Positions 3,032 to 10,618 of a DNA stretch of 17,644 bases are shown piece by piece. Position numbers and translations under genes: made by a program. The stretch comes from Nanopusillaceae archaeon (GTDB lineage: Archaea > Nanobdellota > Nanobdellia > Nanobdellales > Nanobdellaceae), in NCBI GenBank assembly GCA_049973735.1, contig JBMFJL010000007.1, positions 1-17,644 on the forward strand, in the 5' to 3' direction. The notes below the pieces were generated by a model, which saw only the letters and a program-made list of their open reading frames with translations, made no database searches and was not told the origin of the DNA. Position 1 is the stretch's first letter, and every line of letters begins with the position of its first letter.

Positions 3032-3374
3032 GTTAGTAGTAGTTGTTAGAAAAGATCTGGATATTGGAAAGGGCAAATTATGTGTCCAAGTAGCTCATGC
3101 TGCAGTAGAGTGCGTATTACAACAATTAAAAAATAATAAAGACTTGGTAGATGCATGGAGAAGGGAAGGGGCTAAGAAGATAGTTTTATATGTAGAAAAT
3201 TTAGAAAAATTATTGGATATATATCAAAAAGCTATAAAAGATGGTTTAAATTCTGTTTTGATATCTGATGCAGGTCTTACACAATTGGAACCAGGTACTA
3301 TAACATGTGTAGGAATAGGTCCGGATGAGGAGGATAAAATTGATAAGATAACAGGAACATTAAAATTATTATGA
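3024..3374 (+). CDS. pth2: Peptidyl-tRNA hydrolase, archaeal/eukaryotic type (Pth2)
   Basis: KLVVVVRKDLDIGKGKLCVQVAHAAV...GAKKIVLYV...SDAGLTQLEPGTITCVGIGP is the Pth2 signature over the full ~115 aa length. Confidence 0.9.
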   Translation: MYKLVVVVRKDLDIGKGKLCVQVAHAAVECVLQQLKNNKDLVDAWRREGAKKIVLYVENLEKLLDIYQKAIKDGLNSVLISDAGLTQLEPGTITCVGIGPDEEDKIDKITGTLKLL

Positions 3375-3721
3375 GTGAAACATTGGAAGATAGGTGGAGT
3401 GTTGATGTGGAAGAAAGTTTTGATGTAGATAGTTTGAAATATGAGAAAAAATTCATAATAAAGATAAAAAATCATTCTCCATATGTAAGAAGATTTGAAG
3501 TTGGTACTAAATATGCATATTTTAAAGATCAAGCAACCTCTTTAAGATTTAGATTATATTATAATCTAATAACTCCTGTATTAATATCCATAGATAAATA
3601 TAGAAAAGAAAATATAGAAGTGTTAATACCAAAAGCAAATTATTCTGTTGGAGATTATATTTTGATTTATGTAAAGAATCTAGATAAGAAAGAAGAAATG
3701 GATGTAAAATTATATGTATAA
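3371..3721 (+). CDS. Hypothetical protein (beta-rich, no recognisable motif)
   Basis: 116-aa ORF overlapped on both sides (ATGA with pth2, 8-nt ATGTATAA with rpp21). Its composition is typical of this genome's coding sequence. No family recognised. Confidence 0.55.
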   Translation: MSETLEDRWSVDVEESFDVDSLKYEKKFIIKIKNHSPYVRRFEVGTKYAYFKDQATSLRFRLYYNLITPVLISIDKYRKENIEVLIPKANYSVGDYILIYVKNLDKKEEMDVKLYV

Positions 3722-4166
3722 AAGAATAGCATTAAAGAGAATTAGATATTTATACAAGAAAGCTATAGAGAATTTAGACAATATAGAGATTTCTAGAAGA
3801 TATATTTATATTTTATGGAAAATAAAAAATAAAGCTAGAATAAGATTGCCAAAAGATTTAAGAAATAAATTCTGCAAAAAATGTTATACTCCCTGGGTTG
3901 TTGGAAAGACCTTACAAGTAAGAGTAAGGAAAGGTAGAATTATATATAAATGTTTATATTGTGGCAATGTTAAAAGGTTCATAATAAGAAAAAATTTAAA
4001 AGATATTTATATTAATGATATGACTAAGGGCGGCCAAAGTGGCCGGGAAACACCCGTTCCCATTTCGAACACGGAAGTTAAGCCGGCCCACGTCCGTGCG
4101 AGTACTGGCGAAGGCCGGGAAAGCACGGAAGCCGCCCACCCTAAATCACAGCAAATGGAACTATAA
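3714..4166 (+). CDS. rnp4: RNase P protein component 4 (Rpp21/Rpr2 family). The ORF continues through the 5S rRNA gene before reaching a stop
   Basis: N-terminal helices (RIALKRIRYLYKKAIE...SRRYIYILWKIKNKARIRLPKDLRNKFCKKC) plus a zinc ribbon CKKC...CLYCG match Rpp21. The homologous part ends near nt 4020. The remaining ~47 codons (GGQSGRETPVPISNTEVKPAHVRAS...) are 5S rDNA read in frame. Confidence 0.85.
   Translation: MYKRIALKRIRYLYKKAIENLDNIEISRRYIYILWKIKNKARIRLPKDLRNKFCKKCYTPWVVGKTLQVRVRKGRIIYKCLYCGNVKRFIIRKNLKDIYINDMTKGGQSGRETPVPISNTEVKPAHVRASTGEGRESTEAAHPKSQQMEL
4026..4141 (+). rRNA. rrf: 5S ribosomal RNA
   Basis: GC-rich island in AT-rich DNA. It contains the conserved 5S core CCCGUUCCCAUUUCGAACACGGAAGUUAAGCC. 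Helix I is GGGCGGC (4028-4034) paired with GCCGCCC (4131-4137), and helix IV/V is CCGUGC paired with GCACGG. Ends are accurate to +/- 3 nt. Confidence 0.92.
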
Positions 4167-4200
4167 TTTCTTACATCTATTATATTGATCTTTATATATC

Positions 4201-4250
4201 TCAGGCAGCCCGTCATTCATCACTCCATCAGATTTTTGGTCCATCATCAT
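4201..4250 (-). ncRNA. C/D-box sRNA (2'-O-methylation guide RNA)
   Basis: The minus strand reads AUGAUGA(C)-UGGACCAAAAAU-CUGA(D')-UGGA-GUGAUGA(C')-AUGACGGGCUGC-CUGA(D). All four boxes are consensus and both guide spacers are exactly 12 nt, giving a 50-nt core, the archetypal archaeal architecture. It lies in the 93-nt gap between the rpp21/5S ORF stop at 4166 and rps17. Confidence 0.88.
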
Positions 4251-6311: not shown

Positions 6312-6838
6312 ACAAAAATATTAATAACCCAATGAGAAGAATTGTAATTGAAAAGGTAACAATAAATATAGGAGTAGGAAAGCCAGGAGAACCCTTAGAA
6401 AAAGCTGAAAAGTTATTGAAGAAAATGTTTCCGGATAGAAAACCGGTAAGAACAAAAGCAAAGAAAAGAGTACAGGCATGGGGTATAAGGCCAGGATTAG
6501 AAATAGGGGTAAAATTAACTATAAGAGGTAAAAAGGCAGAAGAGGTTTTAAGATGGTTATTGAAAGCGGTAAATAATACATTAAAGGAATCCCAATTTGA
6601 TCAATTTGGTAATTTTGGATTTGGTATAAAAGAATATGTATGGATACCAGGATTAAAATATGATCCTGAGATAGGTATACTTGGAATGGATGTAGTAGTA
6701 ACTGTAGCAAGACCAGGATATAGGGTAGAAAGAAGAAAAATTAGGGCAGCAAAGATACCTAGAAGGCATAAGACTACTAAAGAAGAGGTTATAGAATATC
6801 TAAAGAAAAATTTCGGCATAAATATAATAAAAGAATAA
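6308..6838 (+). CDS. rpl5: 50S ribosomal protein L5 (uL5)
   Basis: NPMRRIVIEKVTINIGVG...FGNFGFGIKEY...GMDVVVTVARPGYRV matches L5. The ATG at 6308 forms an ATGA overlap with the rps4e stop. The ORF-track start at 6257 is a non-ATG upstream extension. Confidence 0.9.
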   Translation: MNKNINNPMRRIVIEKVTINIGVGKPGEPLEKAEKLLKKMFPDRKPVRTKAKKRVQAWGIRPGLEIGVKLTIRGKKAEEVLRWLLKAVNNTLKESQFDQFGNFGFGIKEYVWIPGLKYDPEIGILGMDVVVTVARPGYRVERRKIRAAKIPRRHKTTKEEVIEYLKKNFGINIIKE

Positions 6839-6869
6839 TTTTTTAATATTTCTATAAATTAAAATAAGA

Positions 6870-7403
6870 ATGAGACCATATATTGTAATAGAAAAAGTAG
6901 ATGTACCCGATAATGTTAAAGTATCAATAGAAAAAAATGTAATAAAAGTTGAGGGGCCAAAAGGTAAAAAAGAAAGAATGATTAACAATAGAAATATAAT
7001 AATAGAGAAAAAAGATAATCAAGTTATTTTTAAAGCTTATTTTCCATCTAAAAAAGTATTAAAAGATTTATATACAATGATAGCTCACTTAAAAAATGAT
7101 ATTCATGGTGTTGTAAATGGTTATAGGTATAAATTAAAGGCAGTTTATATACATTATCCAATAAAGCTAAAGCTTGATAAAAATAAGTTAGTTATAGAGA
7201 ATTTTATGGGTGGTAAAAATCCAATAGTAATAGAAATACCTGAAGGTGTGAAAGCATCAATAAATGAAAATGAGATAATATTAGAAGGATATGATTTAGA
7301 GAAGTTGGGAAATTTAGCAGGATTAATAGAAAATTCAGTAAGGTTGAGGGATAAGGATTTAAGAAAGTTTCAAGATGGAATATATATAGTTGAAAAACCA
7401 TGA
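6870..7403 (+). CDS. rpl6: 50S ribosomal protein L6 (uL6)
   Basis: VDVPDNVKVSIEKNVIKVEGPKGK...GYRYKLKAVYIHYPIKL...RDKDLRKFQDGIYIVEK is the two-domain L6 pattern. Confidence 0.9.
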   Translation: MRPYIVIEKVDVPDNVKVSIEKNVIKVEGPKGKKERMINNRNIIIEKKDNQVIFKAYFPSKKVLKDLYTMIAHLKNDIHGVVNGYRYKLKAVYIHYPIKLKLDKNKLVIENFMGGKNPIVIEIPEGVKASINENEIILEGYDLEKLGNLAGLIENSVRLRDKDLRKFQDGIYIVEKP

Positions 7404-8880: not shown

Positions 8881-9267
8881 ATGAAGAAAATTGTTGATTT
8901 TTTATACAACATAAAGAGTAGGGAAAGAACTTTGATTATAGTAGAAGGAAGGAGGGATAAAGAAGCCTTGAATAAAATGGGTATAAAAAATGTTTATACA
9001 ATATATGAACTGAGGAAAATGGAAAATATATTTTTGGATTATAAAGAGGCAATAATCTTGACAGATAATGATAAAAAAGGAAATAAATTATATTTGTATG
9101 TAAAAAACATATTAGAATCAGAAGGATTAACTATTAATAATTATTATAGAAAGAAATTCTTTAATATATTTAAAGTAAAAGAAGTAGAGGATATAAATAA
9201 AAAGATAGATAGAATATTATTTTATGTTAATTATTTTGAGAATCCTGAGAAGATTTTAGAGATTTAA
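8881..9267 (+). CDS. Small Toprim-domain protein (RNase M5 / small primase-like, COG1658-type)
   Basis: LIIVEGRRDKEALNKMGI (conserved Toprim Glu) and ILTDNDKKGNKL (DxD acidic cluster) in a ~128-aa protein. Confidence 0.75.
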   Translation: MKKIVDFLYNIKSRERTLIIVEGRRDKEALNKMGIKNVYTIYELRKMENIFLDYKEAIILTDNDKKGNKLYLYVKNILESEGLTINNYYRKKFFNIFKVKEVEDINKKIDRILFYVNYFENPEKILEI

Positions 9268-10618
9268 ATTTTTTTATTGGATAAGACAATGGATTTTTGA
9301 TGAGTTTGCAAATTTCATCGGGTTTACAAACTCCAATTTCTTTATAATATATCTCATTATCACAATTTGGGGTTAAATATCTTTTATTATTTTTATACAA
9401 TTTTTTATGCCACTCTATTTGATATTCAATATACCTTTCTCTCAATGGTTCGCTTAATTTATCATTCCATTCCTTAATATATTTTTCTATTTTATCCCAG
9501 TCCCATCCAATGTTAGCTAAAAAATTAATTAGTATGAATACAGATCTTTTTCTCCCATCTTCTACTTCTCCACTAAGTATAGTTTTGATACATGGAGGGA
9601 ATAAAGATTCGTCTATATTAATTCTCTTTACTTTAATCTCTTCTATATCCTTTCTTATTTCTTTTTCGTTCTCTTCATTCTTATATTTCTCTGCTTTTTT
9701 TGCTATTTCTGTTATTTCTAAATCATTATTTGTTTTCCATAATAGTGCAGAATTTATTAATTTTTTAAGATCTTCAGATTCTTTTCTTTCTAAATCTTCA
9801 GTCAAAAAAGGTATACCTTCATATGAATAGTTTCCTATTTTAGAATACTCCTTGTCTATCTTTTCTATAAAATTTTCTTTTATCGGTATAGATAAACTAC
9901 CTGTTTTTTCATTTATCGAATACAATCCTCTAATTAAATGTCTCGTAGATATTAATATCGTATCTATTTCTATTATATCATAAGGATCAAAATTGCTAAT
10001 ATCTTTTACTCCAAATTCATTAAGTTGTTCTTCCGAAAATTTATACAATATTATTTTCTTTAAGGTATCTTTTATCTGAGATGAAATATACAAAGCTAAA
10101 ACTCTAGCTAAATCTGGAAATAATTTTCTAGTCTCTTCTTCTATGATATCTTCTTTTTTATATATATTAACCGTTTCAGGAAAAATTTCCCATGGTATGG
10201 CAATATGAAAACCCTTTCCACCAGAATATTTTATATAAATTGGTTTTATTGATTTTTCTTTTAAATAATTTACAATAATCTTTGCAGTAATCTTTGATAA
10301 TTCTAAATCTTTTGTATCAATATCTATTATAAAATCCCATCCAATTCTATAATTTTCAATCTCTTTTTTTGATGCTTTTTCTTTAAGTATATTCAGATCT
10401 AGCCATCTTTCTATAGATATATGATAAGATACTCCTCCTTTTCTAAATATGTTAAAAAAATCTTCTTCAGTTTCTATTTTATAAGGTCTTGAACCGAAAG
10501 AATTATTACTTAACATATATCCAATTTCTCTATTTTGTGAAATCTTTATTATATCTTCGACAATTTCCTTATTTTCTTTATAAAATTTCAGTAGACTTTG
10601 TGATATATTACTATTCAT
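9227..10618 (-). CDS. priS: Archaeo-eukaryotic DNA primase, single-chain fusion of the catalytic PriS module and a PriL C-terminal (Fe-S) domain-like module
   Basis: The N-terminal half carries AEP catalytic motifs DFIIDIDTKD (DxD) and SGGKGFHIAIPW. The C-terminal part carries the PriL-CTD hallmark FPPCIKTIL plus three further Cys (PNCDN...GVCKPDEIC), giving four candidate Fe-S ligands. Confidence 0.85.
   Translation of the reverse strand: MNSNISQSLLKFYKENKEIVEDIIKISQNREIGYMLSNNSFGSRPYKIETEEDFFNIFRKGGVSYHISIERWLDLNILKEKASKKEIENYRIGWDFIIDIDTKDLELSKITAKIIVNYLKEKSIKPIYIKYSGGKGFHIAIPWEIFPETVNIYKKEDIIEEETRKLFPDLARVLALYISSQIKDTLKKIILYKFSEEQLNEFGVKDISNFDPYDIIEIDTILISTRHLIRGLYSINEKTGSLSIPIKENFIEKIDKEYSKIGNYSYEGIPFLTEDLERKESEDLKKLINSALLWKTNNDLEITEIAKKAEKYKNEENEKEIRKDIEEIKVKRINIDESLFPPCIKTILSGEVEDGRKRSVFILINFLANIGWDWDKIEKYIKEWNDKLSEPLRERYIEYQIEWHKKLYKNNKRYLTPNCDNEIYYKEIGVCKPDEICKLIKNPLSYPIKKFKSLKSSQDSQNN

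Follow-up and report, generated by a model that had tools for sequence, protein, structure and literature searches.

Does the RNase P protein gene rpp21 in this stretch really run through an entire rRNA gene, and, if so, does it reflect a new mechanism or an overlap that is tolerated? The source organism is a tiny hot-spring nanoarchaeon of the Nanobdellaceae, whose genome falls in a genus-level group holding Nanobdella aerobiophila (G005, which carries the protein P0003) and Nanopusillus-type genomes; the window is the whole stretch of 17,644 nucleotides analysed here. As the preliminary description had claimed, rpp21 has no stop codon ahead of the 5S rRNA gene: a reading frame of 150 open codons at 3714-4166 (+), with its stop at 4164-4166, spans the 5S gene at 4026-4140. 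Codons 95-104 correspond to the 5S promoter and spacer, codons 105-142 to the 5S gene itself and codons 143-150 to the sequence past it (Table 1). An exact look-up of the 150-aa protein found it not on record. We consider it likely that the locus comprises two overlapping transcription units and that the read-through is a real but tolerated overlap, not a new mechanism; as such, it looks like a side effect of tight gene packing.

Table 1. Features at the junction of rpp21 and the 5S rRNA gene (positions in the window)
Feature	Position	Strand	Evidence
Rpp21 (rnp4) core, aa 1-94	3714..3995	+	Pfam, PDB alignments, cysteines, pLDDT, pN/pS
A-run, BRE-like, abutting the TATA box; its length sets the register	3989..3994	+	junction alignments
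5S TATA box (TTTAAAAG), here Leu-Lys codons	3995..4002	+	motif and spacing conservation
Promoter-to-5S spacer, 8 variable codons (aa 97-104)	4002..4025	+	comparison with G010
5S rRNA gene, in frame as aa 105-142	4026..4140	+	Rfam RF00001, fold
5S trailer, last 8 codons and stop (4164-4166)	4141..4166	+	ORF; trailer not conserved
First run of pyrimidines downstream of 5S; candidate terminator for both transcription units	4167..4172	+	sequence
Box C/D sRNA, converging on the 5S 3' end	4201..4250	-	C, D', C' and D boxes, two 12-nt guides

The upstream part of the frame encodes a regular Rpp21. That its homology is complete upstream of the 5S gene had been recognized before, but the endpoint lies at about aa 93-94 (nt 3992-3995) and not at 4000-4020. 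The Pfam Rpr2 family (PF04032) matches aa 9-84 (E=1.5e-15; 57.6 bits versus a curated cut-off of 29.3), NCBIfam PRK03954 matches with E=4e-16, below its equivalog cut-off, and the solved Rpp21 structures (PDB 2k3r, 1x0t and 6k0a) align over aa 3-95. The AlphaFold model displays a helix-helix-ribbon fold, with helices at 2-19 and 24-41, three strands in 67-90 and a pLDDT of 95-98 for aa 1-90, and the zinc-binding cysteines C54, C57, C80 and C83 are invariant across 78 homologs. Thus, the two helices, the zinc ribbon and the four invariant cysteines are shared with archaeal members of the Rpp21/Rpr2 family (PF04032; 2k3r, 1x0t, 6k0a), whereas this protein stands apart by its short N-terminus and by 56 C-terminal residues read from promoter, 5S and trailer sequence. 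Judged by a pN/pS of 0.18 between this genome and its same-genus relative G010, the core is under purifying selection.

This bears on whether a decaying RNase P might have caused the read-through, a candidate that we rejected: besides the purifying selection on the core, an RNase P RNA (RF00373, 85.6 bits, short at 235 nt; G000:C37:3461-3695) and Rpp29 (PF01868; G000:C15:4945-5184) are present, and missing Pfam matches to Pop5 and Rpp30 are common to read-through and stop-type genomes and hence do not track the read-through. The Pfam search recovered neither Pop5 nor Rpp30 in five genomes of the genus (G004 and two other single-contig genomes among them), while Pop5 was found in 27 of 41 genomes of the class. 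These absences may reflect either loss or divergence, in line with the RNase P of Nst1, described as partly degraded and with a p30 that is called divergent (PMC3655853).

The 5S gene is equally regular. It is recovered by the Rfam 5S_rRNA model (RF00001) over model positions 1-120 with 79 bits (cut-off 38), and is the sole 5S copy in the 786-kb, 86%-complete draft assembly of 199 contigs. Helix I is formed by the pairing of 4028-4034 with 4131-4137 (fold z -3.0), and the mature ends probably lie at about 4028 and 4138. The AT-rich motif that had been pointed out at 3992-4002 is indeed present, and comparisons across the class speak to its function: a box of the TTTA(A/T)AAA type, preceded by an A-rich stretch, is found ~25-35 nt before nearly all of 30 5S genes, and it is kept even if rpp21 is missing, lies downstream or is arranged convergently or divergently. 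The same kind of box, at -31 to -33, precedes about one-third of the 31 tRNAs found in this genome; that of the 5S gene lies at -33. In N. equitans, RNA-seq gives a distance of 26 nt from box A (TTTAAA) to the start (PMC3491384), a spacing that points to a 5S start at 4026-4028. On the strength of this conservation, the 5S gene very probably has its own promoter, which supports the earlier suggestion of separate overlapping transcripts with a 5S promoter inside the coding sequence. A sigma-70 promoter and terminator scan, a method unsuited to archaea, returned counts equal to those of shuffled sequences. We accordingly envisage the 5S rRNA as being transcribed separately from the BRE/TATA promoter at 3989-4002, at the end of rpp21, while the rpp21 mRNA would extend through 5S to the pyrimidine run beyond 4166; T-stretch terminators are documented in N. 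equitans (PMC3491384).

The same promoter has to be weighed against a different fate of the transcript, in which 5S is mainly excised from the rpp21 mRNA, leaving a non-stop message that would be subject to Pelota rescue and an Rpp21 that is truncated or degraded. There is no clear T-run between rpp21 and 5S, so the mRNA probably contains the folded 5S, and, with the stop located 3' of helix I, trimming of the 5S 3' end on such a long RNA would remove that stop; further, a divergent pelota-like gene, scoring below the cut-off of its model, is present. However, stop-type genomes carry that gene just as read-through genomes do, the conserved promoter of 5S makes excision unnecessary and the Rpp21 core has stayed under purifying selection. 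Hence, we regard predominant excision as quite unlikely, though 5S may be excised from a fraction of the rpp21 messages as a side effect.

What sets the locus apart from those of its relatives is the register in which the end of rpp21 meets the promoter. In all 12 other same-genus genomes rpp21 lies directly before 5S, and in 10 of them its stop is a TAA within TTTAAAAA, which leaves 28-29 nt to the 5S helix. The complete genome of N. aerobiophila reads the box as Leu-Lys, like the window, but stops four codons later, whereas G010 reads through 5S in the frame of the window and stops right after it. A stop before 5S is thus seen in 11 of the 12 genomes, as well as in every one of the 25 metagenome loci that were informative. 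P0002 (ENA contig L136), at 89% the nearest Rpp21 found, ends at 94 aa next to an almost identical 5S. The preliminary description had proposed that orthologs with a normal stop and with 5S located elsewhere would reduce the read-through to a neutral accident: normal stops are what most of these loci have, but 5S sits directly downstream and not elsewhere. In gene order, TATA box and a near-identical 5S the locus resembles other Nanobdellaceae rpp21-5S loci (Nanobdella aerobiophila; AP031373.1; Nanopusillus-type); the difference is that in these rpp21 terminates on the TATA-box TAA or a few codons beyond it, and in this genome and G010 only after 5S. Among the best 150 of 811 representatives, no other Rpp21 match extends past aa 118. 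Consequently, the extension is not conserved across a clade, being absent from 11 of the 12 genus genomes, with carriers that do not group together.

A third carrier is X1, a Logan contig of depth 3, which differs from the window by ten listed base differences and one insertion/deletion pair that keep the register; on reconstruction (four of its differences are unlisted) it, too, probably reads through. The position of the stop past 5S differs between carriers, falling directly after 5S in G010 and about two codons after it in X1. A 142-aa protein in Logan corresponds to the G010 gene, and identical DNA occurs in a separate assembly (L140), possibly of the same sample. One metagenome locus (L107) shows a 2-nt deletion near the end of rpp21 that places it in the Leu-Lys register with a stop 11 nt before 5S; this is either a variant or an assembly error.

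The stop-type and read-through states are separated by a one-base difference in the A-run at 3989-3994, which has six bases in the window, G010, N. aerobiophila and X1, and five in the relatives that stop at the TATA box. In the window, the dropping of one A would restore the common TAA stop at 94 aa, and the source is a fragmented draft of 199 contigs, which raises the prospect of an assembly error in which one extra A conceals a normal stop. Yet, the same register recurs in G010, whose six-base run is not pure A but contains a G, in L140, in the complete N. aerobiophila genome and in X1, making such an error very improbable. For the tolerated overlap we propose the following steps: in most relatives the TAA of the TATA box doubles as the stop of rpp21; a one-base slippage in the A-run would take this TAA out of frame, the box being then read as Leu-Lys and the ribosome continuing to the next stop; and the 33-nt spacing from TATA box to 5S would lead the ribosome into the 5S frame that is stop-free genus-wide, so that it ends just past 5S.

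How often this happened was addressed with a 16-protein tree, run without G019, G017, G002, G006 and G007. It places this genome as basal in the genus and G010 as the sister of G001 (AP031373.1; support 100/100), which is of the TAA stop type. A clade of the window genome and G010 is rejected by the AU test (p=1.1e-5, with the constrained tree taken from a fast search), and with it a single +1 insertion in their common ancestor; a single-gene GluRS tree did not resolve the relationships. Since the read-through genomes are not a clade, there must have been a minimum of two or three register flips. In the outgroup G015, whose register is of the stop type, TAT takes the place of TAA. On the protein tree, three insertions and an early insertion with later deletions come at equal cost, while a local DNA tree with weak inner support favors an early insertion and one deletion; for read-through itself, the fewest changes on the tree amount to two separate gains. 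The read-through may instead be old and have been lost several times: in the stop-type L136 the spacer is open in the read-through frame, which fits descent from a read-through ancestor. In all, two lineages, and probably a third, read through 5S; the deepest branch of the genus is among them, and Cys80 is invariably separated from 5S by 78 nt. X1 retains the read-through via an apparent compensating insertion and deletion.

Little is needed for a frame that has slipped to stay open. The frame in which 5S is entered is stop-free in 14 of 14 tandem loci, translated or not, so that read-through requires only an open 8-codon spacer, for which the chance is 0.3-0.4 (28-39% of shuffled spacers have no stop). 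With that stop slipped out of frame, an open frame appears to be no more than chance would provide. At another locus (L056, in G036), rpp21 follows 5S, and its frame can be traced back into 5S without meeting a stop, though it has no start there; this again suggests that stops are often scarce in 5S frames.

The tail itself is probably made, but in the comparison of the window with G010, which offers few sites, it gives no sign of protein-level selection. The promoter and spacer have a pN/pS of 0.74-0.77 versus 0.18 for the core (a single pair with only 11-15 changes); 11 of the 24 bases of the spacer at 4002-4025 differ, with a pN/pS of 0.74. Within 5S one synonymous and two replacement changes separate the two genomes, in line with the 100:258 seen among untranslated copies. 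A search with the tail alone had no match, and AlphaFold predicts a low-confidence helix for aa 95-104 and no secondary structure beyond aa 104, the low pLDDT being expected from an alignment that holds only two tail sequences. We predict that the product would have an ordinary Rpp21 core followed by ~56 unstructured residues, which would be tolerated rather than selected.

Against this could be set an old and selected read-through, wherein the tail, or translation through the 5S fold, has a role, e.g. as a basic or RNA-contacting extension of Rpp21, or in a feedback by which 5S-binding ribosomal proteins would attach to the mRNA and slow Rpp21 synthesis. The basal genome and G010/X1 do share the same frame and length, the local DNA tree, despite its weak support, allows an ancestral Leu-Lys register, and the C-terminal helix of M. 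jannaschii Rpp21 packs on L7Ae and RNA (PMC6565675); AlphaFold, as noted, has a low-confidence helix at aa 95-104. However, only 4 of the 10 residues in that segment match G010, with replacements dominating; most relatives, including the one with the closest Rpp21, lack the tail; the spacing is already constrained by the promoter; the spacer has a chance of 0.55-0.73 of being still open after the 7-11 changes observed between the read-through lineages; and two separate gains require the fewest changes. Selection of this kind thus appears quite unlikely. The more specific proposition that an ancestral read-through has been maintained in several lineages because 5S translation or the tail couples the supply of the RNase P protein to 5S or ribosome assembly strikes us as distinctly improbable.

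The tolerated overlap has precedents, of which it is an extreme variant: 25% of archaeal C/D sRNA genes carry the stop of the upstream ORF, and the effect of such 3' overlaps is neutral or slightly negative (PMC7994747). As in those overlaps (PMC7994747; N. equitans, PMC3491384), sense-strand sequence is shared and the ORF terminates within the RNA gene or past it; here, however, the RNA is an rRNA that sits wholly inside the ORF (~112 nt) with its own predicted promoter, whereas most overlapping C/D sRNAs are processed from the mRNA, unlike what is proposed for 5S. The tail also recalls the spurious rRNA-derived ORFs collected in AntiFam (PMC3308159), in that its protein-like conservation is imposed by the RNA; in contrast to these, the frame continues a genuine gene that has a start, so its translation is probable. 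A literature search of partial coverage found no description of an rpp21/5S overlap. The read-through would hence arise from the combination of slippage at a dual-use stop/TATA site with a stop-poor rRNA. On this most likely reading, the locus is a clean natural illustration of how tightly genes can be packed when an archaeal genome is reduced: a single TAA is stop codon and TATA box at once, its register has changed back and forth more than once, and a protein that looks essential tolerates a tail read off an entire rRNA gene. The locus can mislead annotation, too, as pipelines may drop or truncate either gene. Should the tail or translation through 5S turn out to be selected, this would be a rare functional instance, in a prokaryote, of an rRNA gene that also serves as coding sequence.

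In this genome the ends of ORFs commonly intrude on stable-RNA genes. Several ORFs have their stops on tRNA promoters, and two extend 15 nt into a tRNA gene (tRNA-Asp and tRNA-Arg), one of them with an AFOR_N domain: these are a kinase-like ORF of 184 aa (L143:188-742, minus strand; tRNA-Asp) and an aldehyde ferredoxin oxidoreductase-like ORF of 511 aa (L144:208-1743, minus strand; tRNA-Arg), which end on the same three tRNA-derived residues. The physical link of rpp21 to 5S, to which the preliminary description had drawn attention, is old, the two lying within 2.5 kb of each other in 14 of 28 genomes outside the genus, but it is independent of the read-through: four orientations occur there (tandem either way, convergent and divergent). 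In several genomes of the set G014-G040, rpp21 is followed by rps19e.

The box C/D sRNA downstream lies between 5S and rps17; the element also occurs in G001, G004, G005, G010, G015 and L136. It is without an Rfam match but conserved across the genus and in G015, and its D' guide in the window is unlike the version common to most relatives. As to targets, the assembly is without a 23S match or a 16S signature and the 23S rRNAs of relatives gave no convincing pairing; our guess would be C1402 of 16S. Genus members (L111-L119) have anything from ~260 nt to >3.5 kb between rpp21 and rps17, an interval that is a hot spot for inserted genes. On the other side, a 116-aa ORF at 3371-3721 (+) overlaps both pth2 and rpp21, and relatives have a gene of the same size there. 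The ribosomal protein block of the window comprises only S17 to L32e, with rpl6 following rpl5 after 31 nt (6838-6870) and S14 and S8 missing from their usual slot. Further downstream, a 463-aa ORF at 9227-10618 (-), conserved in relatives, looks like the fused primase of nanoarchaea.
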